Positions 1,108-54,976 of a stretch of 64,000 nucleotides of DNA are shown here, in pieces. Position 1 is the stretch's first letter. Each line of letters opens with the position of its first letter. The notes under the pieces are model-generated. The model was not told where the DNA came from and ran no database searches. It saw nothing but the letters and a program-made list of their open reading frames with translations. A program made the translations under genes and the position numbers. This stretch comes from Candidatus Sericytochromatia bacterium (GTDB taxonomy: Bacteria; Cyanobacteriota; Sericytochromatia; UBA7694). The stretch lies in NCBI GenBank assembly GCA_015272195.1, contig JACYMC010000046.1:4139-68138 (forward strand). The letters run 5' to 3'.

Positions 1108-4100
1108 GTCTCAGCGTTATTGTTTATCTGAATTCCCGGAGTACGCTTCACCCACGCTTTCTGATTGAGGCTTTAAAAGCCCAGCAGCAGGCAGCGCCTG
1201 ATGTACATATCTTTTATACCGAAGATCTGACCTTGCCTGAGCTGCCTGAAAACTGGCAGCAGACGGCCGTCAGCCCTGAAAGCAGCTGTGCTGAGATCTG
1301 GCAGCAGGGCTGGTCCCAAAGTCAGAGCGATTATGTGGCGTTTTTCTCTCAGAGTGTCTGCCTGAACCCCTTGCATTTTGCTGCGCTCTTGCAGACCCTG
1401 CAAACACAGCAGCTGCACGCCAGCTGTACGCAGCCTGAATTTGTAGACAACCAGCTGTTGCCGGTGCCCGAAATGGCGCTGCCGGTATTAAAAGCAGCCG
1501 ACTGGCCCGGTTTTGCGCTGGCCTCCCGGATTCTCTGGCCGTTTGAAAGCGCCTGTTTTTTTCGTGAAGCCTTGAATGAAGATTTCTTTGCGAGCCTTTC
1601 AGAGCAGCCCTCTCTGCGTGATGCCCTGGACTGGCTGAATACCCACCCACTCAGCGTGCTGCCCCTTCAAACCCTAACCGTTCCGGCAGAAGCCTATTGG
1701 CAGGATAAAGCCACAACAGCTTCTCAGCAGCCTTATTTTAAGCAATTACTGAAAAAGTATGCACCAGAATCCCTGACGCCGTCTTATGCCCTGGCTACAG
1801 AGCAGAAAACACCTGCAGCCTGTTACTTTTTTGTGTCGCAGGCTTTGCTCAATCAGGGGCTTACGGGTTTGCTGGATGCCTTTCAGAAAAAAAACCAGCA
1901 ACATATTCAGAATCAGAAACAGGTGATGTGGCTGACAGAAACATTGCCCGCAGACTGGAAGAACCTGCTGCAGGGCTTGCAGGCTGAGGGCTTTACCCCC
2001 TTGCTGGTCCAGCTGAGCACCGAGCGCAGCCTGAGCGGTGAGCCCTATTTTACGCAGTACACTCAGCAAGACGGCGTGCCCATGATCAAAATTTCCGGGA
2101 TTCATCCGGTTGAGTTTCAGGTGCAGGGGCTAGAGCAGCCACCGGCAATGGTTTCCTGGATGATTGCCCTGATCAATGCTTATCAGCCCGCGCGTTTGCA
2201 TCTGAGTACCCTGCATTTTTATTCGGCCTTTTTTCTGGATGCCATCCGCGCAGCCAATATCCCCATTTATTATTCCGTCAGCGATACCTCCCTGAATTTC
2301 TGGCGCCATCAGTTGCGCCAGCCTGAAACCCGTTTCCGCGAAAACAAATACGCGCCCGCTGCGCTGTATTATCAGAATCGGCTGGTGCAGCAGTTTTTGC
2401 GGGAAGATGCTGCGGCTTTGCTGGTTCATCAACCTGAAGCAAAGGCGCAGCTGCTGGATCTTGGCTGTGCCCCGGAACGGATTCAGGAAGTCAGTACAGC
2501 CGCCGCGCTGGCTGAGGTGTATCGGCAGCCGGCGCGTGTCTACCGCCAGCAGGTCAATCAGGCGGAGATGGCACCGCTTTACCAGCTGCGCACGGGGGAG
2601 TCTTTGGCTAATGCCCTGTTGCAGGATTTTAAAGACGTGGATCTGCAGGCCCGTGTGCTGGTCTGTGGCCAGGATATTGAAGGGCTGCTGCGCCTGTTAC
2701 TGGAGCAGGAAATCTGGACCCAGGCCACGGTTTTTGACGCTGAACAGGCCCAGGCCTTTAAAAAGAAAGGCCTGAACGCTCATCACGGCAGCCTTACGGC
2801 GCTGTCGGCCTACAGCCATTATTTTGATGTGGTTTATACACCCTTTTTGCTGGAAAGTCTGAAGCCGCACCAGTACCATCAACTGCTCAGCAGTGTGATG
2901 CTGAACCTCAAAAAAGGTGGGGTCTGGCTGCTGCGTACCCGTCACCCGGTGACAGCGCGCCCTGATCAGGGCGGTTTCTGGCTTTCAGCATCCCATCGCC
3001 GCCCCTATTCACCGGATCTGGTACAGCACTGGCTGGAGCAGGCGGGTTTTGAAGTGGAGCGTGTGATTACTGGTTGTCATGACAAGGGTTGGCACGACGT
3101 TTTGTTCAGAGCCCGTATGCGTATTTCCGCCTTGCCCCTGCTCAATGCGCCGGTGGCGACAGCCGCCTGTGAAAAAGTCTGGCACGAAAATCCGCTCAAC
3201 GTCACGCTGAACGAAGAGGCTAACGTGCTGCTGGTCGGTACCCATATTCGCAAAACCTGGATGATTCAGCGCATGAGCTGTGCTGCAATGCTGGGGCTAA
3301 GCCTGAATTTTACTGAGTTGCCGCACTCGCCTCAGCGCCGCCTCAAAAAACACCAGTTTCGTCATGCCCGCCATCTCAACGCCAGTCTGGCCCATCTGCA
3401 GCAGCAATTTGATGCGATTCTGGTCGAAGGTGCTGCCGAAACCCTGATGCCTCAGGAACTGCAGCAGTTTCTACAGCTGTGTCGCCAGCGTCTCAAGCCT
3501 GACGGTGAGCTGCATCTGCGTAGCCTGCAGCTGGAGCCTGACAATGAAGATCCCCTGTTCTGGCAGAGCCTGCTCCATCAGCGTCCCTATGCTGATTTAC
3601 AGTCAGCCCTGGCGGCGCAGGGTTTTGAAGTGCTGGCCGCTGAGCAGACGGGGCTGATTCATCAGTATCGCTGCCGACTGGCTGAGCCTGTACAGGCCAC
3701 GCGCTCTACCCCCAAACTGCCGGCCAATGTCCGCCAACTGATGAAGCAGGGCGCGCGTGTTCAGAAAATTGATCACTGGCAGCAGCTGACGCAGCTGGGT
3801 CGGGAGCAGGACTGTCTTTTGCTGGATGGTTTGCTGGAACAGTTACCGCCTGATCGCCTGGTGCCCGCTCTCAGGCAGCTGATCCAGTCTCTGCGGCAGG
3901 ATGGCCTGCTGGTGCTGCTTTTTGAAGCCGACACCCACTGGCGCTGGGCACAGCATGAAGGTCAGCGGCCTTATCCGTCTCTGGTGGTGGAGCAACTTCT
4001 GCAGCTCTGCGGCCTGCAAAAGCATAGCCTGGTGGCCAGTGAGCAGCGCTGGATTTGGTGTGGGTTCAAACGCCAAGCCTTGCTTCCCCTCGCGCAGCCT

Positions 4101-8557: not shown

Positions 8558-10675
8558 TCATTGCAGGGTTTCGAGGCGGGCAAAGAAGTAGCGCTGCTTA
8601 CCACTGTTCAGATAGCCGCTGCTGCGCTGTTGAACGCCTTTGATCACGTCTGCTTTGCCGAAGTCAGCCAGTGCGAGGGTATCACCATTCAGCTTCAGTG
8701 GCTGAGGGATGGGTTTCTGATCGCGCAGGGTGCTGACCACCTGGCCGGCCTGGTTTAAGAGATAGATGCCTGTGACTGCAGGGTGCTCCATGGGCAGCCA
8801 GTGCTGGGCCATATAGTCCAGCAGCAGATCCAGTGCGCCAACGCCGACAAAGCGCTGCTGCTGATCATAGAGCGGCAGACTGCAGGTCAGCAGCAGGCCC
8901 TGCCCCTGGGCGTCAGGGTAGGGTTTGCCCCACACGGGGCCCCGCTGGTTTCTGGCCACCCGGTACCAGGGACGCAGGCGGGGATCGTATGCCGGCTGAT
9001 AAGCGCTGCCGGGATAGGTCACCATCAGGCCGGCTTCCCAGCCCAGATTGAGCCAGACCAATGGCAGTTCACCCTGCTGAATCATGGCTTTCTGACGGGC
9101 CAGTGTCGGTAGGGGACTTTCGGGCAGCGCACTGCGAATGGCGGCCCGGCGCATGACGGGGGCCAGGTGGCTCAGCTTCTGGTAAAAAGGCTGCAGGGCC
9201 TGCCAATCGGTACCGGGTGCGCGATGAAACACAAGCTGATCCAGGCTGATGGGCGCCTGATACGCAGGTGCTCGCGCCAGATCGGGTGGGTAAGGGCTGG
9301 GCTGCAGCCGAAACCCCGCGCTGTGATAGACGGGCTGGGTCTGCACCTGTGGCGCACCGGCCTCGAGCGCATCCAGCGCCTGGCTGCCAATACCGCGCAA
9401 TAAGCCTTCGAGGTAGATCAGCCGGCTGTCAATGGACTGGGTATGGGCCAGCATCTGATTGAGCAGATCATAGGTCTGTTGTTCGCGCCAGCGTGTGGTT
9501 TCTATGGCCTGCTGGCGTGTCAGTAATGCGCCACCGATGGCCAGAACGCCGCTCACCAAAACCAGCGTCAGCAGGCCCAGGCTGAGCACCGGATGCTGCC
9601 CCATCCAGCGCTGGAGCTTTTGACGCAGATTGTCGGGACGTGCCAGGACGGCTTCGCCGCGCAGGTAGCGGCGCAGATCATCGGCCATCTCAGCCACATG
9701 CCGGTAGCGGGCTTCGGGTTTGCGGGCTGTGGCTTTATGAATAATGGCGGCCAGCTCCGGGGCAATTGGCTGGCGGTAAGGGTGCACCAGGGTCTCTTTT
9801 TCGGCTTTGAGCACTTTTTTGAGCAGGCTCAGCTGGTCGCTGGCCTGAAAGGCTGGTTTTAAACAGACCATTTCAAACAGAATCAGGCCCAGGGCAAAGA
9901 GGTCGGAGCGACCGTCCAGGGCCTCGTTTTTGCCCGCCGCCTGTTGCGGAGACATATAGCGGGGGGTGCCCAGAATTTTGCCCATCTGGGTTTGCTCAAA
10001 GAGGGGCTGGGTCTGATCGGGCTCAATCAGGCGCACCAGATTTTCGTGACTGGCTTCAGGCTCTGAGATCAAACGGGCAATGCCCCAGTCCATCACATAG
10101 ACCTCGCCATAAGGGCCGACCATCAGGTTGGCGGGCTTGAGATCCCGGTGAATCACGCCGCGCACATGGGCATAATGCATGGCGTCGCAGACCTTTAAAA
10201 AGTAGCCCAGCAAGGTCTCAAGACTGTGTTCAGGCCTGGCCTGCCCCGCATGCTCAAAGTCTTCGCGGGCAGCCTGTATCAGTTCTTTAAGTGTTTTTCC
10301 CTGAATCAGCTTCATGGTATAGGCTGTTTTGCCGTCGGCGTGGGTTTCCAGATCATAAATGGGGATAATATTGGGGTGACCCAGTTGGGCGGTGATCTGG
10401 GCTTCTTTGACAAAGCGGCTGAGCACTTCCGGGTGCACGGCCATCTGGGCGTGTATCTGCTTATAGGCCACTTTGCGCCGCAGGTTCTGATCCTGGGCGG
10501 CCAGGACCTCACCCATGGCGCCGGCCCCCAGGGTTTGCAGCAACTGGTAGCGCTCCGCGGCCAGCTGAAAGCTGCTGAGCTCTGTGCCCGGCGCTGCCTG
10601 ACCCTCAATCTGGGTTGACAGGGTCAGCTCAATGGCGTCGTCTGGTTCGTCTGTGGGCTGGCTGTTGTCAGTCAC
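8558..10675 (-). CDS. Hanks-type Ser/Thr kinase - TM - extracellular Cache domain (paralog 2)
   Basis: LGAGAMGEV, VAYK, HRDLKPAN, DWG and GTPRYMSPQQ motifs, a TM helix, and Cache motif YDPRLRPWY...WGKPY.D. The likely start is GTG at 10675, overlapping the upstream stop; the ORF-track start at 10858 runs through the upstream gene. Confidence 0.85.
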   Translation of the reverse strand: MTDNSQPTDEPDDAIELTLSTQIEGQAAPGTELSSFQLAAERYQLLQTLGAGAMGEVLAAQDQNLRRKVAYKQIHAQMAVHPEVLSRFVKEAQITAQLGHPNIIPIYDLETHADGKTAYTMKLIQGKTLKELIQAAREDFEHAGQARPEHSLETLLGYFLKVCDAMHYAHVRGVIHRDLKPANLMVGPYGEVYVMDWGIARLISEPEASHENLVRLIEPDQTQPLFEQTQMGKILGTPRYMSPQQAAGKNEALDGRSDLFALGLILFEMVCLKPAFQASDQLSLLKKVLKAEKETLVHPYRQPIAPELAAIIHKATARKPEARYRHVAEMADDLRRYLRGEAVLARPDNLRQKLQRWMGQHPVLSLGLLTLVLVSGVLAIGGALLTRQQAIETTRWREQQTYDLLNQMLAHTQSIDSRLIYLEGLLRGIGSQALDALEAGAPQVQTQPVYHSAGFRLQPSPYPPDLARAPAYQAPISLDQLVFHRAPGTDWQALQPFYQKLSHLAPVMRRAAIRSALPESPLPTLARQKAMIQQGELPLVWLNLGWEAGLMVTYPGSAYQPAYDPRLRPWYRVARNQRGPVWGKPYPDAQGQGLLLTCSLPLYDQQQRFVGVGALDLLLDYMAQHWLPMEHPAVTGIYLLNQAGQVVSTLRDQKPIPQPLKLNGDTLALADFGKADVIKGVQQRSSGYLNSGKQRYFFARLETLQ

Positions 10676-12737
10676 GGCTGGCCGCCAGAACGCTGGGCAA
10701 ATCGGCTTCGACCACGTAGGCCCAGTCAATGGATGGCAGGTAATAATAGAGCCAGAGGGTATTTTGGTAAATCTGGTAGCCAGAGCTTTGGGCGGCAATA
10801 GCGGCTCGCACGCCCAGATCTTCCAGCAGGGCACCTTCGCGCGTGGGCTGGCTGACAAAACGTTCTCCCTGGCGTTTGGCTGACAGCATCAGTTCGCCTT
10901 CTGGGTTCACCAGTGCCACCGACCTGACCGCTGCTTCGCTGTCCAGGTGCAGGTAGGTGCTGACCATTTGCTCGGGCTGCAGGTCAAAATTGATTGTGCC
11001 CCAGAAGCGGTTGTTTTCACCATACAGGGCGGTGGCCACGGGGATCAGACGGGCATTGGCCGTCATATCAATATAGGATTTGCCCCAGTGCACACCCTGT
11101 TTGTGGGCCGCCAGCAGATAAAAGGGTCGCTCGGTGGGTGAGTAGTTGCGGGCCGTTGCTGCCGGAATGTCTTTACCGGGGTACCAGAAGGCAATATTGG
11201 CGTCAGCCAGAATGGTGTTGGTCCAGGCCAGGGGCAGGGGGCTGTTGCCCAGATAATGCCGGGCCTGCTCAGGGTCTTTCAGTGTGTCATGGCCGCCGCT
11301 GCGCAGCAGCATCTGGCGGTAGGTCTGGCGCAGACTGGCCAGGCTCTCAGCCAGTGGGCGATAAACGGCGGGCTGGGCATTATGGCCCGGCACAACAATT
11401 GGCCAGTCCAGACTCGTGGCCGTGCCGTAACGGGGAATATCCGCCAGATCGGGCGGGTTAAATTCCTGGCTGACATACAAGGGCTCAGGTTGACGCGGCG
11501 GGTGCTCCAGCCGGGCCACGGTAACGGCAGCCAGTTCCAGCAGCCAGCTTTCAACGGTCAGAAACTGTCGGTCCATGGTGCGGCCCCGTGAGGTGACGCT
11601 GGCGAGCAGGCGGCCAATGGCCTGCTCCTGTCTGCGGGCCTGCAGTAGATCCCACTGCTGCCGTGCCAGAATGCCCAGGGTGATCAGGCTGCTGAGCATC
11701 ACAAAGATCAGCGCCAGGCTCAGCACTTTGCGCCGCTGATGACGAAAGCGGCGCAGCAGGGCCTGGGGCAGGCTGTCGGGAGCGGCCAGCACGGCTTCAC
11801 CCCGCTGATAACGGTGAATATCGTCTATCAGGGCCTGCAGGTCGTGATAGCGATCTTCCCGTTTGACCTGCAGGGCTTTGCCAATCACGGCCTGCAGGTC
11901 GCGGGGTAAGGGCTGGCGGGGAAACAGGGGGCTGATTTCCTGATGCTGGCCTGTCAGAATCTGTTCGAGCAGCTCAGGGGCTGTTTTACCCGTAAAAGCG
12001 GGTTTTAAGGTCACCAGCTCAAATAAAATCGCCCCCAGGGCAAAGAGATCAGAGCGGGCGTCCAGTTCGTTATTTTTGCCCCGGATCTGCTCGGGTGACA
12101 TATAGCGGGGCGTACCCAGAATCTGACCGGCCTGGGTCAGTTCCAGATCATGCTGGGCGATCTGGCTGTTCATCTGCAGACCCCCGCCCTGTTCATGCCC
12201 GCCGCCCATCAGACGGGCAATGCCCCAGTCCATTACATAGACCTCGCCATAAGGGCCGATCATCAGGCTGGCGGGCTTCAGGTCGCGGTGAATCACCCCT
12301 TTGCTGTGAGCATAATGCATGGCCTCACAGACCTTTAAAAAGTATTCCAGCAGGTTGTCCAGGCCGTGGTTTTCATCGACGTATCCCTGGTTTTCCCACT
12401 GCTCGCGAGCGGTCTGCAAGACCTGCTTGAGGGTTTGGCCCTCCACCATTTTCATGGTGTAGGCCAGGCTGCCGTCCATCTGCTCCAGATTGTATACGGG
12501 CACAACATTGGGGTGGTCGAGCTGGGCGGTGATCTGAACCTCATTCAGAAAGCGGCCCAGGGCAGTGCGATCCTGCATGACCTTCTGATGCAGGGTCTTG
12601 AGAGCCACTCTGCGCTGCAGGCTGCGCTCGGCCACCAGATGAATCTGCCCCATGGATCCCTCACCCACCACTTTGAGAAAATCATAGCGTGGTGGTGGAC
12701 TGCCTGGGGTTGGTGGCTGCAAAGGCTCTGATGACAT
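10668..12737 (-). CDS. Hanks-type Ser/Thr kinase-like protein - TM - Cache domain (paralog 1)
   Basis: VGEGSMGQI, VALK, HRDLKPAS, DWG and GTPRYMSPEQ motifs, a TM helix, and Cache motif ERPFY...HWGKSYID. Confidence 0.88.
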   Translation of the reverse strand: MSSEPLQPPTPGSPPPRYDFLKVVGEGSMGQIHLVAERSLQRRVALKTLHQKVMQDRTALGRFLNEVQITAQLDHPNVVPVYNLEQMDGSLAYTMKMVEGQTLKQVLQTAREQWENQGYVDENHGLDNLLEYFLKVCEAMHYAHSKGVIHRDLKPASLMIGPYGEVYVMDWGIARLMGGGHEQGGGLQMNSQIAQHDLELTQAGQILGTPRYMSPEQIRGKNNELDARSDLFALGAILFELVTLKPAFTGKTAPELLEQILTGQHQEISPLFPRQPLPRDLQAVIGKALQVKREDRYHDLQALIDDIHRYQRGEAVLAAPDSLPQALLRRFRHQRRKVLSLALIFVMLSSLITLGILARQQWDLLQARRQEQAIGRLLASVTSRGRTMDRQFLTVESWLLELAAVTVARLEHPPRQPEPLYVSQEFNPPDLADIPRYGTATSLDWPIVVPGHNAQPAVYRPLAESLASLRQTYRQMLLRSGGHDTLKDPEQARHYLGNSPLPLAWTNTILADANIAFWYPGKDIPAATARNYSPTERPFYLLAAHKQGVHWGKSYIDMTANARLIPVATALYGENNRFWGTINFDLQPEQMVSTYLHLDSEAAVRSVALVNPEGELMLSAKRQGERFVSQPTREGALLEDLGVRAAIAAQSSGYQIYQNTLWLYYYLPSIDWAYVVEADLPSVLAASRD

Positions 12738-49014: not shown

Positions 49015-51723
49015 CTAGTCCTGGATGCGCTGCAACTCGACCCGTGTCAGCTTGTGCCCGCTCTGACCCGTATACGGGCAGCGCACCCGGTGGCTGGTCA
49101 GCAGGTTCACGGCTTTTTGCTGGCTGATTTCGGCCTGGTGTTTGTAAATGCTCAGATAGACCGTTTCGCCTTTGAGGCGTGAGGTGGGCATCACGCTCAG
49201 AACCATGGTGCTGCGGGTTTCGTTGTTGGTGATCCAGACCCGGTCGCCCTCGCTGAGATTATAGCGCTCGGCCAGCATATACGAGACAAACAGCGGGTGA
49301 GCGGCGGGGATATCCTGGGTGTTGGCCAGCCGCGAAAAGTTAAAATTATTGCTCTGCTCCTGGCGCAGGGGCTCCGGGGCCAGGCGCTCCAGCAGGCCTC
49401 TGCCCGTGCAGAGCACAATGCCGCGTGGCAACTCCAGATCCGCGCTGCTGGGGGTAAAAAAGCGAAAGCGCACGGGTTCACCGTACAGATTTTGCAGGGG
49501 CAGGGCTTGAGGCTGGCTGGCATCCAGGCGCTGACGCGTGCTGCCCACCCCGCCGTGGATCAGGCTGCCGGCCTGCAGCAGCTCTTCCCAGGTGATGATG
49601 CGCCCGTCCGGGTGCCGTGGCTGGCAGTAGAGCGGGCGGCCATTGCCGCTGCTGCCGCTGAAATAGTGCTGAATGCGTTCCCAGAGCACAGCCCGGTTCA
49701 CTTCGCCTTCCTGACGCGGCAGGCCTTCGGCTTCAAAGTGCCGGGTCAGATAGCCAGCCCGGTTGAGCTGGGCCAGATCGGCATGCTGCAGACGCAGGCC
49801 GTCATGCTGGCGCAGCAGGCGGCTGATGGTGGCCATCAGGTCATAAACAATGGTGGTGTCGCTGCGGGCCTGGCTGGGGGCCTTGCGCCGGGGCAAAGAC
49901 AGGCTCAGGCGCCATTCGCCGTTCTGAAACAGCTTGCCGCAGGAGACATGGGGCGGGGTGGGCAAAATCAGGGCGGCATATTTCAGGGCAAAGGCGTCGG
50001 GCGTGGGGTCAATCACCACAAACTGGGTCTGCCGTGCCATCAGCTTGCGCAGCCAGCGGGTGCGGTTCATCATGCTGCTGGCAAACTGGCTACCAAAAAA
50101 GATAAACAGCTCTTTGCGCGGATCCGGCTCCGAAAAATCCAGCGCCAGCCGGGGCGTGATCTGCAGGTTTTTGGCGTAGGCATCTTCGGGCAGGCCCAGC
50201 CGCAGGGCGGCTTCAGCGGCGCCGGCATCGTCCACCGGAATGCGGCCCATAAAGTGCTGGGGCGAGAGGCTTTGCAGGTGGGTTTCGTGGTTGGCCTGGC
50301 CGGGCAGTTGCAAGACCCCGCCCGCCAGCTGGCCGTCAGGCTTCAGGCCAAACTTGCCCAGCATGGCCAGCAGGTTGGCCCAGAGGCAGTGGGGTATCAC
50401 CCCCCGCGTCTGTGAAAAGCCCATGGAGGGAATGTGCACGGGCACGCAGGCCGGATCGGCCAGCCGGGCGGCAATGGCATGAATGGCGTTGACAATGCGT
50501 TTGCGGTATTTAAACTCCGGCGCAATCCGTTCGGCCACGGCTTCGGCTTCAAAGTCCGGATCCAGGGCCAGCTCCCGAAAGCGCGCAAAGCTCTCGGCAT
50601 CGGTAAAATGTGTCAGAAAGTCATTGTTCAGGGCTTCAGGATGTTGCAGCAGGCAGGCCCGGGCAATGGCCAGAGCCAGCTGGCTGTCGCCCCCGGAGCG
50701 GATGATCAGCACCCGCTCAGAGTCCAGCCGGTGGGAAAGGGCCTGGGCTGACTCGGACATCATGACTTCAACCAGCCAGGCGTCCAGATCCGGGCGGTTG
50801 AGCAGGGCCTCAAAAATAGGGGGGTGACTGACGGCCCCATTCCAGCCGTTGAGCAGATAGAGCGCGTTGGGGCTGTGCAGGGCCTGATCAATGCTCACAA
50901 AAGGTGCGGGCTCGCCGCCGTGCAGGGTGGTGTAAAGTCCGCCGGAGAGGTAGCCGTGCTCGGCATTGCTGTTCATGTTGCGCACCCCCAGCAGGCGAAA
51001 GACCTCCTGAATGGCAAAGACGGCAAAGTAGTCCAACTGGCCGCTGGCATAGACCAGGGTGCGGGCGCGGGGCGGGCGGTGCTCCAGTACCAGTCGCGCA
51101 AAGCGCTCCAGGGCTTCTTCATAAAACAGGGGCACGCGCTGGCCCGTAATATCCAGCACGCTGGGACGCAGATGCAGTGGATGAAAGCCGGCACTCTCGC
51201 CCAGAGCCAGGGCAAAGCGGCGGCAGCCGGGGGTGGGCTGGGGATTTTCGGCGGTGGGCAGGCTGTATTTGAGTCCGCGCGGGTGAATCATAAAGCGCTG
51301 GGCCAGGGTCTGGCCGTCGGGCTCCAGCAGCAGATCAAAGGCCCGCAGCTTAAAGTGCTGTTTGCCGTGTTCGTTTTGCAGCCAGCCGCCACAGAGCTGG
51401 CCGGGTTTAAACAGGGCTTCTTTGGTCAGTACCTGCAAATAGCCACCCTGTATCAGGGCCGGGTAGCGTGTACCGGGCTGGTGCTCAAAGCAGAAGTTGC
51501 CGGCCTGGGTTTCCTGGCGTGCTTTTTCGGCCGCCTGCCGGCCCGGCTGGCGCAGTTTGAGCCGGGCGCTGGTGCCCACGCCGCAAAAAGGGCAGGCAAA
51601 CTGGCCCGTATGCTGGGCGCGGGGCTGACCGTCGGCAAAGAGCCAGCCTGGCAGATCGTGTAAAGGCTCCAGATAAGAGGCGTCTTCAATGGTGGGCAGG
51701 CTGTTCTGAAACGACTGATCCAT
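49015..51723 (-). CDS. Molybdopterin oxidoreductase (NapA/NasA-like) homolog lacking key cysteine ligands
   Basis: CPFCGVG, YASGQL, G.RN...N, GQAN, VVIDP and FQNGEWR motifs, plus a C-terminal molybdopterin-dinucleotide-binding-like region. Confidence 0.75.
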   Translation of the reverse strand: MDQSFQNSLPTIEDASYLEPLHDLPGWLFADGQPRAQHTGQFACPFCGVGTSARLKLRQPGRQAAEKARQETQAGNFCFEHQPGTRYPALIQGGYLQVLTKEALFKPGQLCGGWLQNEHGKQHFKLRAFDLLLEPDGQTLAQRFMIHPRGLKYSLPTAENPQPTPGCRRFALALGESAGFHPLHLRPSVLDITGQRVPLFYEEALERFARLVLEHRPPRARTLVYASGQLDYFAVFAIQEVFRLLGVRNMNSNAEHGYLSGGLYTTLHGGEPAPFVSIDQALHSPNALYLLNGWNGAVSHPPIFEALLNRPDLDAWLVEVMMSESAQALSHRLDSERVLIIRSGGDSQLALAIARACLLQHPEALNNDFLTHFTDAESFARFRELALDPDFEAEAVAERIAPEFKYRKRIVNAIHAIAARLADPACVPVHIPSMGFSQTRGVIPHCLWANLLAMLGKFGLKPDGQLAGGVLQLPGQANHETHLQSLSPQHFMGRIPVDDAGAAEAALRLGLPEDAYAKNLQITPRLALDFSEPDPRKELFIFFGSQFASSMMNRTRWLRKLMARQTQFVVIDPTPDAFALKYAALILPTPPHVSCGKLFQNGEWRLSLSLPRRKAPSQARSDTTIVYDLMATISRLLRQHDGLRLQHADLAQLNRAGYLTRHFEAEGLPRQEGEVNRAVLWERIQHYFSGSSGNGRPLYCQPRHPDGRIITWEELLQAGSLIHGGVGSTRQRLDASQPQALPLQNLYGEPVRFRFFTPSSADLELPRGIVLCTGRGLLERLAPEPLRQEQSNNFNFSRLANTQDIPAAHPLFVSYMLAERYNLSEGDRVWITNNETRSTMVLSVMPTSRLKGETVYLSIYKHQAEISQQKAVNLLTSHRVRCPYTGQSGHKLTRVELQRIQD

Positions 51724-51726
51724 TCG

Positions 51727-52200
51727 TCAGGTGGCGTGCTTGATGCGCTGATTGGCCCCGCGCAGACGCCGGCTCAGAATTTCGGCCACGCCCATCATAA
51801 AACGGGCGGCTGTCGCCGGCTGCTGGTCGAGCAGCTCGCTGAACTGTTCGGGAGTGATGCTGAAGACCTCGGCGGCTTCGGTGGCCGTGACTTTGGCCGA
51901 GCGGGGCTGGGCGTCCAGAAAGGCCATTTCGCCGAAGATCAGCCCCTCACCGGCACAAAAAAAGCGCATGGGCTCACCCAGGGTATTCTGGGTGGTGATT
52001 TCAAACTCACCTTTGACAATCACATAGAGCCGGTGGTCGGTGTCGCCTTCAGCAAACACCACCTCACCGGCTGCATAGTGCCGGGTTTCGCAGCGTTTCA
52101 TGACCTCAAACACATCGCGGTCGTTCATATTGTAGAAGATCCGCAGATCCTTCAGGGCATGAATTTTGTTCAGAATGGCCTGTCGTTGCGCTTCATCCAT
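51727..52200 (-). CDS. Stand-alone cyclic-nucleotide-binding domain protein
   Basis: VFAEGD...LYVIVKG, FGEMAFLD..PRSA.V.A and C-terminal helix. No HTH. Confidence 0.9.
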   Translation of the reverse strand: MDEAQRQAILNKIHALKDLRIFYNMNDRDVFEVMKRCETRHYAAGEVVFAEGDTDHRLYVIVKGEFEITTQNTLGEPMRFFCAGEGLIFGEMAFLDAQPRSAKVTATEAAEVFSITPEQFSELLDQQPATAARFMMGVAEILSRRLRGANQRIKHAT

Positions 52201-52234
52201 GGCTTTGCCTCGGTGCTCTCCCAGTCTTACCTTT

Positions 52235-52243
52235 AGTTTAGCA
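52235..52243 (-). promoter_or_regulatory. Extended -10 element upstream of the cNMP-binding gene
   Basis: Minus strand TGcTAAACT about 35 nt upstream of the ATG at 52200. Confidence 0.4.
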
Positions 52244-52281
52244 CTCCTGCCGCGCTGACGGTAGCCTTGTCAGATGATGCC

Positions 52282-52821
52282 TCAGGCACATCCACAGTCC
52301 TGACAGGATTGCACCGAGTGGGTGCCGCAGTGTTGCTGGAGCTGGCGGCGCAGGGCCCTGCGGGCCCGGTGCAGACGCACGCTGGCCAGGTTGGGACTGA
52401 TGCCCAGGCTCCGGGCCGTTTGCTGCACGCTCTGCTGCAGGCTTTGCAGAATCAGGGTCTGGTCCAGGGCCGGCAGGCGTTCGACATAGCCCAGCACGCA
52501 GGGGCAGGGATTGACTTCGTCTGCTGTGTCACTGGCGTTCTGCGCATCGCTGAGGTGCAGCAGGGCGCTGTCGGGCAGGGCCTGCTCGCGGGTCTGCGCG
52601 CGCTGCAGATCGCTCAGGGTGCGGCTCAGAATCCGGTAAAGCCAGCTTTTGAGGGCCGCCGGATGCCTGAGCTGCGCTTTTCGCTCCAGGGCCTTGAGCA
52701 GGGTTTGCTGCACGGCGTCTTCGGCCAGCTCGGGCTTATGGCTGCGCGCCAGGGCCCAGCGCAGCAGCGCCGGGCGCAGGGCCAGCAGGGCGTTTGTCAG
52801 GTCAGGATCCGGGGGCGACAT
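52282..52821 (-). CDS. ECF sigma factor, CorE/ECF44-like (CxC linker plus C-terminal Cys-rich domain)
   Basis: sigma2 (AEDAVQQTLLKA...WLYRI), CPC linker, sigma4 (LGIS....SVRLHRARRAL), and tail HCGTHSVQSCQDCGCA. Start taken as ATG 52821. Confidence 0.85.
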   Translation of the reverse strand: MSPPDPDLTNALLALRPALLRWALARSHKPELAEDAVQQTLLKALERKAQLRHPAALKSWLYRILSRTLSDLQRAQTREQALPDSALLHLSDAQNASDTADEVNPCPCVLGYVERLPALDQTLILQSLQQSVQQTARSLGISPNLASVRLHRARRALRRQLQQHCGTHSVQSCQDCGCA

Positions 52822-52825
52822 CGGG

Positions 52826-52963
52826 CTAGTTGCCGGGACAGCGGCATTCGGGCGGACAGCCACAGCCAGGGCCGCATTGGCAGACCTCGCCACAGCAGCA
52901 GCCGCTTTCGGGCGGCACGCTGCAGGGGCAGTTATCACAACAGTTGGCAAGTGGTTTTAACAT
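52826..52963 (-). CDS. Unannotated metallothionein-like peptide (45 aa, 13 Cys)
   Basis: Own translation: MLKPLANCCDNCPCSVPPESGCCCGEVCQCGPGCGCPPECRCPGN*. GGAG SD 7 nt before the ATG. Stop lies 4 nt before the sigma ATG. Confidence 0.85.
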   Translation of the reverse strand: MLKPLANCCDNCPCSVPPESGCCCGEVCQCGPGCGCPPECRCPGN

Positions 52964-53015
52964 TGGCTTTCTCCAGTGCTTTTATTCATGCAGGTGTTTG
53001 GCCTGCTGATACACA

Positions 53016-53042
53016 GACGCACAGACACCCTTTGATCTTACA
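53016..53042 (-). promoter_or_regulatory. Candidate ECF-type promoter of the metallothionein-sigma operon
   Basis: Minus strand TGTAAG (53042-37), N17, CGTC (53019-16), about 52 nt upstream of the metallothionein ATG. Confidence 0.45.
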
Positions 53043-53080
53043 CTTTTGCGACCTAAAAAAACAACTTGTGGGGGCGGAAC

Positions 53081-54976
53081 TCAGCTCTCAGCGCCCAGGG
53101 CGGCCAGTTCTTCCTCGGCCAGCTTCCAGGCTTTGAGGGCTTCGGTCCAGCGGGCCTCGGCCTCAGGCTCGAGGCTCTGCTCGTACTGCTCTTCCAGCTC
53201 CAGGGCTTTCAGGCCGAGCTCCTCGACCTTGCGTTCCAGCTGCTGGCGTTTGCGTCGCAGGGCCTTCTGGGCTTTGTAGTCCTCTTTGCCCCCGGCGGGC
53301 GCTTCCTTTTTGCCCTCAGCGGCCTGTTTGTTTTTGACCTGCTGATCCATCACGGTGCGCTCTTTGAGCGAGACGTCACGGCTGAGGTGGTCGGTGTCGT
53401 ACTTTTCGAGGTACTCGGGGTAAGTGCCTCTGAAGTCGAGATAGCCGTCGGGCTTCAGCTCCAGAATGCGGGTGGCAATGCGGGAAACAAAATAGCGGTT
53501 GTGGCTGACAAAGATCAGCGTGCCCGTATAGGCGGCCAGGGCCTCGGTCAGTTGATCGATGGCTTCGAGATCCAGGTGGTTGGTGGGCTCGTCCAGCACC
53601 AGCACGGTGCTGGGCTCCAGCATCAGCTTGGCAAAGATCAGCCGGGTGGCCTCGCCCCCGCTGAGGGTCGAGATTTTGCTCATGGCGTCGTCTCCCGAAA
53701 AGAGCATGCGGCCCAGCAGGTTGCGGATCAGGCCAATGGTGGCCGTGGCGTCAAAGCTGTAGAGCCAGTCGTAACAGGTCATATCGCCTTTGAGCAGATC
53801 GTGGTAATCCTGCGGAAAGTAGCCCGGCGTGGCCTCATGGCCCCAGCGCGACTCGCCGCTGTCGGGTGCCAGCAATTGCATGATAATTTTCAGCAGGGTC
53901 GATTTGCCCACGCCGTTGGGGCCAATGATCGCCAGGCGATCGCCGCGCTCGACTTCAATCGAGACCTGTTTGAGTACCTGCTTGTCTTCAAAGGACTTGC
54001 TGATGCCGTCAAGGGTCAAAGGGATGATGCCCGAGGTGGTGGCGGGCTTGAACTGAAAATGGGGCCAGCGCCGCGAGGAGGGAATGATCTCGATGTCTTC
54101 CATCTTTTCGAGCATTTTGACCCGTGACTGGGCCTGGGAGGCCTTGGTGGCTTTGGCCTTAAAGCGGTTGATAAACTGCTGCAGGTCTTCTTTTTTCTTT
54201 TCCTGGTTGGCCAGGGCTCGCTCTTTTTGATCTTTTTCGAGTTCTTTGGCGGCCAGAAAGCCGTCGTAATTGCCCGTGTAGAGCTTGACCGTTCCGTAGT
54301 CGATATCCATAATGTGGCTGCAGACGGCGTTTAAAAAGTCGCGGTCATGGGAGACCACAATCAGCAGGCCTGGAAAGTCGCGCAGGTGTTGCTCCAGCCA
54401 TTTGATCGAGAAGATATCGAGGTGGTTGGTAGGTTCGTCGAGCAGCAGAATGTCGGGCTTGCTGAAGAGCAGCTGGGCCATCAGCACGCGCAGCTTATAA
54501 CCCCCCGAGAGGGTTTTGAGGGGGTTCTGGTGCAGCTCAGCGGGAATGCCCAGGCCGTCGAGCAGACGGGCGGCATTGCTTTCAGCGCTGTAGCCGTCGT
54601 GCTGAATGATCACTTCTTCGGCTTCGGCGTAAAGCTCCGCGTCGCGCAGGTCCATATCGCTCTGACGGGTCAGGCGGTCCTGGGTTTCGCGGGCCTGCCA
54701 GAGGGCCTCATTGCCCTGAATGACCGTGTCCATGATGCTGCAGTTTTCGTAGGCGAAGTGATCCTGTTTGAGGTAGCCCACGCTGGCCTGTTTGGGCCAG
54801 GAGATCTCACCGCTGTACTCCTTGACCTGGCCGGTCAGCATTTTGAGCAGGGTGGATTTGCCGGCACCATTGGCACCGACGAGGCCGTAACAATGGCCGG
54901 GATAGAGTTGGTAGGTGACATCTTTGAACAGCACCCGGTCGGCAAATTCAAGACGGACTTGATTGAGTTCTAACAT
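53081..54976 (-). CDS. ABC-F family ribosome-associated ATPase (YbiT-like)
   Basis: Two ABC domains (GANGAGKST, LSGG, LLDEPTNHLD; GPNGVGKST, LSGGE, LDEPTNHLD). No TM segments. Confidence 0.93.
   Translation of the reverse strand: MLELNQVRLEFADRVLFKDVTYQLYPGHCYGLVGANGAGKSTLLKMLTGQVKEYSGEISWPKQASVGYLKQDHFAYENCSIMDTVIQGNEALWQARETQDRLTRQSDMDLRDAELYAEAEEVIIQHDGYSAESNAARLLDGLGIPAELHQNPLKTLSGGYKLRVLMAQLLFSKPDILLLDEPTNHLDIFSIKWLEQHLRDFPGLLIVVSHDRDFLNAVCSHIMDIDYGTVKLYTGNYDGFLAAKELEKDQKERALANQEKKKEDLQQFINRFKAKATKASQAQSRVKMLEKMEDIEIIPSSRRWPHFQFKPATTSGIIPLTLDGISKSFEDKQVLKQVSIEVERGDRLAIIGPNGVGKSTLLKIIMQLLAPDSGESRWGHEATPGYFPQDYHDLLKGDMTCYDWLYSFDATATIGLIRNLLGRMLFSGDDAMSKISTLSGGEATRLIFAKLMLEPSTVLVLDEPTNHLDLEAIDQLTEALAAYTGTLIFVSHNRYFVSRIATRILELKPDGYLDFRGTYPEYLEKYDTDHLSRDVSLKERTVMDQQVKNKQAAEGKKEAPAGGKEDYKAQKALRRKRQQLERKVEELGLKALELEEQYEQSLEPEAEARWTEALKAWKLAEEELAALGAES

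Follow-up and report, generated by a model that had tools for sequence, protein, structure and literature searches.

CorE-like proteins are the textbook ECF sigma factors that sense their ligand themselves. The hallmarks of this group (ECF44) are a CxC motif before sigma4 and a C-terminal cysteine cluster, and its representatives CorE and CorE2 of Myxococcus xanthus are now placed within ECF238. The tail reads C-X4-C-X2-C-X-C in CorE and CC-X3-C-X2-C-X-C in CorE2, and the CxC motif is essential in CorE2. CorE promoters are defined by AAC; CorE2 is not autoregulated, and CorE is only partly so. To our knowledge, these two proteins are the only CorE-like sigma factors that have been studied, and both have complex regulons. 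We know of only two bacterial metallothionein families established so far, SmtA/BmtA and MymT.

Here we describe a locus in a 64-kb window (the whole stretch of DNA that was analyzed) at which a gene for a metallothionein-like peptide is followed directly by a gene for a CorE-like sigma factor (Table 1). The pair is probably a metal sensor-plus-chelator circuit of a kind not described before. The original prediction knew of no description of this pairing, and the literature searched contains no paper that links a metallothionein to CorE-like sigma factors.

Table 1. Coordinates of the peptide-sigma factor pair and its predicted signals in the window
Feature	Position	Strand	Details
Predicted ECF-type operon promoter	53016..53042	minus	-35 TGTAAG, 53042..53037; 17-nt spacer; -10 CGTC, 53019..53016
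Shine-Dalgarno sequence GGAG	52971..52974	minus	7 nt 5' of the peptide ATG
Metallothionein-like peptide gene, 45 aa	52826..52963	minus	13 Cys; core GCCCGEVCQCGPGCGCPPECRC; missed by gene finders
Spacer between peptide TAG and sigma factor ATG	52822..52825	minus	4 nt (CCCG); no separate Shine-Dalgarno sequence
CorE-like ECF sigma factor gene, 179 aa	52282..52821	minus	sigma2, residues ~6-81; flexible linker, 88-101; sigma4, 107-164; Cys tail, 164-179
CPC (C106-P107-C108), a CxC motif at the N-terminal edge of sigma4	52498..52506	minus	C..C invariant in 28 homologues
C-terminal Cys-rich tail HCGTHSVQSCQDCGCA	52285..52332	minus	H164-A179; C165, H168, C173, C176, C178

Cysteine motifs of the sigma factor

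The sigma factor has the architecture of a group 4 sigma70 protein, with sigma2 and sigma4 only: it matches Pfam Sigma70_r2 (residues 14 to 78; 4.6e-9) and Sigma70_r4_2 (residues 112 to 157; 4.1e-6) and no other domain. Its AF2 model (pLDDT 83) has a normal ECF fold that matches those of SigL, SigH, RpoE, and SigW. The best NCBIfam match was to SigZ (TIGR02959), at 69 bits, below the cutoff of 168.65; together with the placement of B. subtilis SigZ in ECF238, this match is suggestive of ECF238.

The original prediction had described a CPC motif between sigma2 and sigma4 and a tail with four cysteines and two histidines, and both were recovered. Among 28 sigma factor homologues, C106, C108, C165, C176, and C178 are invariant and C173 is nearly so, with a conserved tail pattern, C-x7-C-x2-C-x-C, that ends in Cys-X2-Cys-X1-Cys. 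The CxC motif is present in all 16 peptide-linked sigma factors examined (the L013 sequence is truncated, but downstream of the motif).

The proposed likeness to the CorE/CorE2 group was supported, as were the other parts of the original prediction that sequence analysis can address. Compared by described motifs, the window sigma factor has in common with CorE and CorE2 the sigma2-plus-sigma4 organization, a CxC before sigma4.2, and the Cys-X2-Cys-X1-Cys end, and it retains the equivalents of both cysteines that are essential in CorE2 (C169 and C178). However, its tail, with four cysteines in about 16 residues, falls below the 21 to 50 residues described for ECF44, and equivalents of CorE Cys184 and CorE2 Cys173/Cys174 are missing; peptide-linked sigma factors have His, Thr, Arg, or Asp at this position, and the window protein has His168 at X4. 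Because the tail is short and lacks the cysteines that set metal specificity in CorE2, the identity of the sensed ligand is uncertain.

A cysteine-rich peptide encoded upstream

The first gene of the pair encodes MLKPLANCCDNCPCSVPPESGCCCGEVCQCGPGCGCPPECRCPGN, in which 29% of the residues are cysteine and Phe, Trp, Tyr, and His do not occur. Relative to L001, a 91%-identical relative, eight of nine nucleotide differences are synonymous in the peptide frame, leaving one amino acid change, compared with eight in each of the other frames. By this comparison, the ORF is under purifying selection and hence is a real gene, a conclusion also drawn from its Shine-Dalgarno sequence (GGAG or AAGGAG boxes likewise precede the homologous ORF in L001, L002, L006, L007, and L008) and from homologues in other phyla, in which 12 cysteine columns are invariant (17 homologues aligned). 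A spurious ORF was rejected on the same substitution counts. An N-terminal extension of the sigma factor (a 222-aa ORF starting at TTG, or the 197 aa called in P0001) was likewise rejected, with eight amino acid changes accumulated in the extension frame. Gene callers run the sigma factor ORF through the peptide gene in another frame, and for this reason the peptide family has been hidden from view; since the ORF is so rarely called, homologues were recovered only by profile search and DNA-level scans and not by a protein search with the peptide sequence alone.

The homologues have a common core, [G/E]CCCGxxCxCGxxCxCPxxCxC, and Gly, Pro, and Val positions and the cysteine spacing are conserved across phyla. 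In 17 family members the cysteine content is 22 to 30%, and none contains an aromatic residue. The family is rare, with about 30 clusters among 1.84 billion representatives. In composition the peptide resembles a metallothionein, with a low molecular weight, a high content of cysteine in CxC, CC, and CxxC motifs, and no aromatic residues, and an aromatic-free sequence this rich in cysteine, with CxC and CCC, is typical of metal-thiolate clusters; it is predicted to bind metal. No homology to described metallothionein families (SmtA/BmtA PF02069, eukaryotic metallothioneins, and solved metallothionein structures) was detected in the libraries searched, which do not include MymT. Pfam and NCBIfam gave no match at an E value of ≤1 for the window peptide, Pfam gave none at ≤10 for eight family members, and a PDB profile search gave only chance Cys-rich matches (E ≥ 0.13). 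The AF2 model of the peptide alone, with no metal, has no confident fold (pLDDT 51) and no predicted helices; this result would fit a fold templated by metal but is no proof of one. We regard the peptide as a candidate for a new family of bacterial metallothioneins.

The size and cysteine richness of the peptide also recall SCIFF-type precursors, and its tight coupling to a downstream gene recalls leader peptides. That the ORF encodes a Cys-rich RiPP precursor, or a leader peptide that gates sigma factor translation through the supply of Cys-tRNA, nevertheless seems to us very improbable. The surrounding genes include no conserved radical-SAM enzyme or other maturase, protease, or exporter, and no maturase lies within 2.5 to 4 kb in any locus. 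Moreover, the conserved Gly, Pro, and Val residues and the fixed cysteine spacing exceed what a leader rich in Cys codons would need, and the strong Shine-Dalgarno sequence and the purifying selection on the whole peptide argue in the same direction.

Conservation of the pair and its promoter

A survey of gene neighborhoods for small Cys-rich ORFs bore out the pairing first noticed in the window. At 17 of 18 independent peptide-carrying loci, a sigma factor with the CxC motif and Cys tail is encoded directly downstream on the same strand; the exception, L014, has a peptide homologue but no adjacent sigma factor gene. The pair was found in Polyangiaceae, Archangium, Minicystis, Lujinxingia, Pseudomonadota MAGs, and metagenomes; L009 belongs to a cultured species, Lujinxingia sediminis. 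An all-against-all BLAST comparison of flanking ORFs yielded no third conserved gene, and flanking genes are common only to near-identical relatives. The conservation of the sigma factor cysteines, and the purifying selection on the small ORF and its conservation across phyla, mark the features seen in the window as more than chance.

The sigma factor gene starts 4 nt after the peptide stop codon, as predicted (TAG, 52828-52826; sigma factor ATG at 52821), and the lack of a Shine-Dalgarno sequence in this spacer suggests that translation of the two genes is coupled. At the 14 loci where the sigma factor start is not clearly over-extended, the junction varies from a 4-nt overlap (GTGA in L005) to 35 nt; L011 and L018, with called overlaps of 43 and 119 nt that were taken as over-extended starts, were left out of this range. 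Neither a terminator nor a sigma70 promoter was found between the peptide and sigma factor genes, and no sigma70-like promoter was found in positions 51600-53200. The junction is spanned by metatranscriptome contigs of a ~93%-identical relative (X6, 52769-52934; X7, 52814-52976), although these are assembled contigs that could contain DNA.

The predicted promoter begins 79 nt upstream of the peptide ATG. Its two-block motif, TGTAA(G/T)-N16/17-(C/T/A)GTC, occurs in 17 of 17 pair loci, 38 to 117 nt upstream of the peptide ATG, and nowhere else in the 179 kb scanned (14 loci, comprising 13 pair loci and L014); shuffled sequences carried it in 0.02 of 16 regions on average. The 64-kb window contains two matches, compared with 0.21 expected, of which the second (12237..12212), with 16-nt spacing and inside a 689-aa ORF, was treated as chance. 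The -35 element, TGTAAK, contains TAAG or TAAT, in contrast to the AAC-type promoters of CorE and CorE2. From this conserved motif, we infer that the sigma factor recognizes the operon promoter and that the operon is fully autoregulated, which would set it apart from both M. xanthus proteins. It differs from them also in gene order, since here the sigma factor gene follows that of a Cys-rich peptide in an operon rather than lying next to efflux or oxidase genes.

As the original prediction had it, no anti-sigma domain adjoins the pair in the window, where the neighboring genes encode a stand-alone cNMP-binding protein, a 902-aa Molydop-binding protein, and an ABC-F ATPase; neither a zf-HC2 nor an anti-sigma domain was found beside the pair in the other loci examined. 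The lack of a cognate anti-sigma factor is a further feature in common with CorE and CorE2. It could be envisioned that the peptide, instead of being a bulk chelator, interacts directly with the sigma factor protein, either as a small metal-dependent anti-sigma factor that docks via bridging metals on the surface formed by the CxC motif and Cys tail or as a metallochaperone for loading or unloading of the sigma factor site. Strict co-inheritance and translational coupling favor a fixed stoichiometry, as in sigma/anti-sigma pairs, and the N-terminal form of the peptide (CCxxCxC versus CxCxxCx3-4CxC) covaries with the sigma factor tail (short ...CxxCxC versus long ...CxCxxxGCC). In addition, peptide-linked sigma factors have a common tail signature, C-G-[TV]-x-x-x-x-x-C, without the second cysteine of their non-linked relatives. 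We nevertheless consider a direct partner unlikely. Co-inheritance along the sigma factor tree accounts for the covariation equally well, CorE and CorE2 function without any partner, and the peptide gene lies upstream of the sigma factor gene, whereas the usual position of an anti-sigma gene is downstream. Furthermore, the peptide as modeled lacks the helices or hydrophobic surface used by anti-sigma domains, and it does not resemble a ZAS protein, having no HxxxCxxC motif, no zf-HC2 match, and, in the window peptide, no histidine.

A putative metal circuit and its genomic setting

The interpretation that we favor, and think reasonably probable, is that the pair is a self-contained, autoregulated two-gene operon that joins a metal-activated sigma factor to a sequestering peptide with feedback. 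The promoter TGTAAG-N17-CGTC would drive the peptide and, through translational coupling, the sigma factor, into which the metal sensor would be built in the form of the CxC motif at the start of sigma4 and the C-terminal cysteine cluster. Basal transcription would supply a little inactive apo-sigma factor. A rise in a cytoplasmic thiophilic metal (candidates are Cu, Zn, and Cd) would fill the cysteine sites and render the sigma factor competent, as in CorE and CorE2, and the resulting holoenzyme would fire its own operon promoter, so that the sigma factor would feed back positively on its own synthesis and a burst of peptide would be made. The 13 peptide thiols would then sequester the metal, so that free metal falls, the sigma factor loses its ligand, and the operon is turned off; this shutoff would constitute negative feedback through the product, in line with the role of "metal anti-sigma" that the original prediction had suggested for the peptide.

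A stronger version of this proposal, which we put forward tentatively and with more doubt than conviction, is that the peptide, with its many thiols and its translation coupled to that of the sigma factor, is a dedicated regulatory partner that competes with, or exchanges metal with, the sigma factor cysteine site ("anti-sigma by ligand competition"), possibly in a metal-bridged complex, in which case the operon would be a horizontally mobile, self-limiting pulse generator whose sole output is its own chelator. If true, this would represent a new kind of sigma factor control and a third bacterial metallothionein family, systematically missed by gene finders. The favored autoregulated operon would, for its part, make the subfamily a minimal system, limited to a single promoter, sensor, and output, in which the metal switch, the specificity code, and product feedback are open to testing in a heterologous host. 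The specificity code is of interest in that the tail lacks the cysteine that sets Cu versus Cd/Zn specificity in CorE2. Such a compact, orthogonal promoter-sigma-chelator cassette may also find practical use in metal biosensing and sequestration.

The proposed circuit is reminiscent of SmtB-SmtA in cyanobacteria and RicR-MymT in Mycobacterium tuberculosis, where a bacterial metallothionein is likewise under a dedicated metal-sensing regulator; MymT, too, was once a small, unannotated Cys-rich ORF. However, SmtB and RicR are repressors (of the ArsR/SmtB and CsoR families) that are released by metal and are not cotranscribed with the metallothionein, whereas here an activating sigma factor would be on the same transcript. 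In yeast Ace1/Cup2-CUP1 and in Candida glabrata Amt1-MT, a Cys-rich, metal-activated activator drives a metallothionein, which in turn reduces the free copper and thereby its own expression, and Amt1 also activates its own gene. The likeness is one of circuit logic only, since Ace1/Cup2 and Amt1 are eukaryotic DNA-binding factors with unlinked genes and no homology to the pair. A C-terminal cysteine cluster also serves as metal sensor, with no anti-sigma protein, in the iron starvation ECF sigma factor OrbS of Burkholderia cenocepacia (an "on-board anti-sigma"). Unlike the pair, OrbS has a C-X2-C-X3-C-X5-C motif, no CxC, and no chelator partner, and Fe(II) inhibits its binding to core RNA polymerase.

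The same thiols could alternatively sense thiol-reactive stress (oxidants, electrophiles, or disulfide stress), with oxidation of the sigma factor cysteines as the switch and the peptide as a sacrificial thiol buffer. The CorE literature itself points to a resemblance of the sigma factor motifs to redox-sensing ZAS sites, the activity of CorE depends on the redox state of copper, and no metal transporter is a conserved neighbor of the pair. We think this quite unlikely, however, since the closest characterized sigma factors are activated by metal and the peptide has the metal-thiolate character outlined above. Moreover, distant sigma factors with the CxC motif and Cys tail, but without the peptide, adjoin genes for a copper ATPase and HMA chaperone or for a multicopper oxidase and YHS protein; these copper gene clusters therefore place the sigma factor clade in metal homeostasis, and metal-gene neighborhoods of relatives are a feature held in common with CorE and CorE2. 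The flanks of L019, which encode a His-rich protein and a Fur-family regulator, also speak against a thiol stress module.

Among the remaining pair loci, L020 has genes for an unrelated second ECF sigma factor and a membrane protein upstream of the pair.

The peptide gene and its surroundings

On a Logan contig carrying the same locus (L001), the sigma factor is 91% identical to that of the window, and the two 138-nt peptide ORFs differ at nine nucleotides. Eight of these differences are synonymous in the peptide frame, the sole amino acid change being Q29K, whereas the same nine differences read in either other frame give eight amino acid changes each. A spurious ORF was thereby excluded; judged from this substitution pattern, the small ORF is a genuine gene that annotation has missed. 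Gene callers run the sigma ORF upstream across the peptide gene in a different frame, yielding a 197-aa protein in the Logan relative (P0001) and a 222-aa TTG ORF in the window (52282-52950, minus strand). This over-extended call conceals the peptide gene and adds a false N terminus to the sigma factor, and for this reason a search of the protein database with the peptide alone returned no match. A 144-aa protein called in a representative library (P0050) opens as the Cys-rich peptide, and its end is a tail of sigma type (...HCGVDRLGSCHCGC...); a frameshift or miscall at a peptide-sigma locus, not a natural fusion, probably accounts for it.

The coordinates and motifs of the original prediction (both ORFs, the CPC motif, the Cys tail, and the 4-nt gap) proved exact when rederived on the minus strand. 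The peptide ATG is preceded, at a distance of 7 nt, by a GGAG box. The pair is flanked by an ABC-F ATPase gene upstream and, downstream, by genes for a stand-alone cNMP-binding protein and then a 902-aa Molydop-binding protein; no anti-sigma domain was found in these three neighbors, which bears out the claim that no anti-sigma gene is adjacent.

Features of the peptide-sigma locus in the window
Feature	Position	Strand	Details
Predicted ECF-type promoter	53042..53016	-	Pattern match upstream of the peptide gene
Peptide gene, 45 codons	52963..52826	-	ORF; encodes MLKPLANCCDNCPCSVPPESGCCCGEVCQCGPGCGCPPECRCPGN; stop codon TAG
ECF sigma gene, 179 aa	52821..52282	-	ATG at 52821, end at 52282; starts 4 nt after the peptide TAG
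CxC motif	52506..52498	-	C-P-C, sigma residues 106-108
Sigma C-terminal tail			Last 16 residues, HCGTHSVQSCQDCGCA

The peptide contains 13 Cys residues (29%) and no aromatic residue or His; by composition, it satisfies the operational definition of a metallothionein and is a putative metal binder. No homology to any Pfam, NCBIfam, or PDB family was detectable, and AF2 predicted no structure (pLDDT 51, from a shallow alignment), as would be expected of a metal-templated fold. The small ORF might instead encode a RiPP precursor or a leader peptide, a reading that we regard as very improbable. The family core is [G/E]CCCG-x2-C-x-C-[GP]-x2-C-x-C-x3-C-x-C, and the family is rare: when 1.84 billion cluster representatives were searched exhaustively with an HMM, about 30 peptide clusters were recovered at E<=1e-3. 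According to the review literature, SmtA/BmtA and MymT are the only established bacterial metallothioneins, and MymT was also an unannotated small ORF at first; the present peptide family was previously unrecognized.

Conservation of the pair

The next relative of the sigma factor, at 46% identity (L002 and L003), occupies an unrelated gene neighborhood, and it too is preceded, at 20 nt, by a Cys-rich ORF, MSEDCCKSCNCGAPAVAGGCCCGAVCKCGADCQCPPECGCPGQ. Homologues of the peptide were sought in four ways: a DNA scan of GTDB, a protein profile search, a metagenome scan, and the cluster-representative HMM search. The DNA-level scan, with one genome per GTDB species, found five loci (Polyangiaceae, Archangium and Myxococcota MAGs, and two Pseudomonadota MAGs), and the metagenome scan found three more. 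The profile search of 5.8 billion proteins yielded nine called proteins of 56 to 65 aa, all "hypothetical"; the contexts of seven were examined, among them those of the isolate Lujinxingia sediminis (Bradymonadales) and a Minicystis MAG. Thus run, the survey for small Cys-rich ORFs near CorE-like genes that had been proposed at the outset upheld the pairing: an ECF sigma gene lies directly downstream, on the same strand, in 17 of the 18 independent peptide loci, with junctions ranging from a 4-nt overlap to 35 nt. The sole locus with no adjacent sigma gene, L014, has the weakest peptide match. Its 65-aa product (3001-3198) is the most divergent homologue, has no downstream sigma gene, and is preceded by just a degenerate TGGTAAT...TGTCG; possibly, it is an orphan copy that depends on a sigma factor encoded elsewhere.

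In an all-against-all BLAST of flanking ORFs, neighbors were held in common just among near-identical relatives; therefore, the pair is the sole conserved unit. Furthermore, DNA contigs of metagenomic relatives (read runs X1 and X4; about 93% identity to the window) lose synteny right after the sigma stop (window 52269-52282) and carry other sequence beyond it, so the pair is a discrete unit, and the cNMP-binding and Molydop-like genes downstream are no fixed part of it. The operon is apparently mobile. According to the read-set metadata, close relatives come from bioreactor and sludge metagenomes.

The peptide and the sigma tail covary in two forms (alignments A4 and A5): an N-terminal CCxxCxC accompanies a short sigma tail, ...CxxCxC(A), and an N-terminal CxCxxCx3-4CxC accompanies a long one, ...CxCxxxGCC, with L011 as the exception. 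This covariation could reflect coinheritance or functional matching. That the peptide is a direct partner of the sigma factor, as a metal-bridged anti-sigma or a metallochaperone, is unlikely in our estimation.

Two loci have neighbors of their own. In L019 (740-2621), the pair lies between a 146-aa His-rich protein gene upstream (repeated HxH, HGPxCGH) and a Fur-family regulator gene downstream, and the sigma frame is broken by an apparent frameshift (1492-1983 and 1541-2029). In L020 (750-2989), a second, unrelated ECF sigma factor and a membrane protein are encoded upstream, and a DUF3703 gene has a 4-nt overlap with the sigma stop.

Sigma factor class and promoter

Three features define CorE-like (ECF44) sigma factors: the CxC between sigma2 and sigma4.2 is strictly conserved, the C terminus forms a Cys-rich domain, and there is no anti-sigma. 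CorE is activated directly by Cu, and CorE2 by Cd/Zn. Their tail motifs are C184-X4-C-X2-C-X-C (CorE) and C173-C-X3-C-X2-C-X-C plus the essential C169 (CorE2), in which C174 sets Cd/Zn versus Cu specificity. The window sigma factor matches only Sigma70_r2 and Sigma70_r4_2 in Pfam, and its top NCBIfam model, SigZ (TIGR02959), scores 69 bits, far under the cutoff, which places it outside every curated equivalog. Its AF2 model (pLDDT 83) comprises sigma2, a disordered linker (88-101), and sigma4 (107-164), of which the first turn contains the CxC and the last helix leads into the Cys tail; the fold matches SigL, SigH, RpoE, and SigW.

Among 28 aligned homologues, C106, C108, C165, C176, and C178 are invariant and C173 is nearly so. 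Mapped from the published motif strings, C165 would correspond approximately to CorE2 C169, and C173-X2-C176-X-C178 would be the terminal block common to CorE and CorE2; the position of CorE C184 and CorE2 C173-174 would be held by His168 in the window and by Thr, Arg, Asp, or Val in the other peptide-linked sigma factors. With His168 mapped to the site of the CorE2 specificity Cys, the metal cannot be deduced for the window protein. All peptide-paired sigma factors have the CxC at the sigma4 edge and a C-G-[TV]-x5-C-x2-C-x-C tail, often prolonged by ...GCC. In a maximum-likelihood tree, all of them fall within the CxC/Cys-tail clade, beside peptide-free relatives with CGxC tails, and the linkage label requires 2 changes, versus about 10.5 in shuffles. 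The nonlinked sigma gene of L016 adjoins HMA chaperone and P-type ATPase genes, and other nonlinked relatives adjoin YHS, DUF5676, and multicopper oxidase genes; the wider clade is therefore tied to copper/heavy-metal homeostasis. A response of the module to thiol or redox stress is quite unlikely.

Regions of 200 to 260 nt 5' of the peptide gene were aligned by eye and afterwards by pattern. TGTAA(G/T), a 16- or 17-nt spacer, and (C/T/A)GTC occur in all 17 pair loci, starting 38 to 117 nt ahead of the peptide ATG, with TGTAA and GTC invariant. Over 179 kb scanned on both strands in 14 loci (13 pair loci and L014), the pattern occurred solely at 13 sites upstream of the peptide, and after shuffling, on average 0.02 of 16 upstream regions contained it. 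ECF promoters typically show such a two-block layout, with CGTC at -10. Because the peptide and sigma genes are the only ones that travel with the motif, the simplest reading is that the sigma factor recognizes this TGTAAK/GTC promoter and is autoregulated. No sigma70-type promoter or intrinsic terminator was predicted from the promoter through the end of the sigma gene. Metatranscriptome assemblies of a close relative include contigs that contain the peptide gene and extend past its junction with the sigma gene; they are weak but consistent evidence for a single transcript. A second match in the window, TGTAAK-N16-CGTC at 12237..12212 (minus strand), lies inside a 689-aa ORF (10668..12737) and is best read as chance.

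The proposed circuit and known systems

The evidence best supports a model in which a metal-activated sigma factor regulates its own expression and has the chelating peptide encoded ahead of it as its main, and perhaps only, local output. Active sigma factor would yield more sigma factor, a positive feedback, and the peptide would lower free metal, a negative one. The yeast Ace1-CUP1 and Amt1-MT systems follow the same circuit logic, and SmtB-SmtA and RicR-MymT resemble the proposed circuit in outcome; unlike all four, the present circuit would work through an RNA polymerase subunit, with both genes on one transcript. The original prediction knew of no description of this pairing. None was found in the full-text literature for metallothionein with CorE, ECF44, ECF238, ECF sigma, or myxobacteria, a search whose scope left out most subscription journals and relevant supplementary tables, and the word metallothionein is absent from the CorE, CorE2, ECF-review, and ECF-reclassification papers. 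A known type of sensor and a known functional class of chelator are thus joined in an undescribed, conserved operon, which adds to them an unrecognized peptide family and a defined promoter.

In the window, the genes for the cNMP-binding protein (157 aa) and the 902-aa protein, whose Molydop_binding match is weak, occupy 49015-52200 on the same strand as the sigma gene. The gap between the sigma and cNMP-binding genes is 81 nt and has no predicted terminator; transcription from the sigma promoter may therefore continue into both genes in the window genome and in L001.
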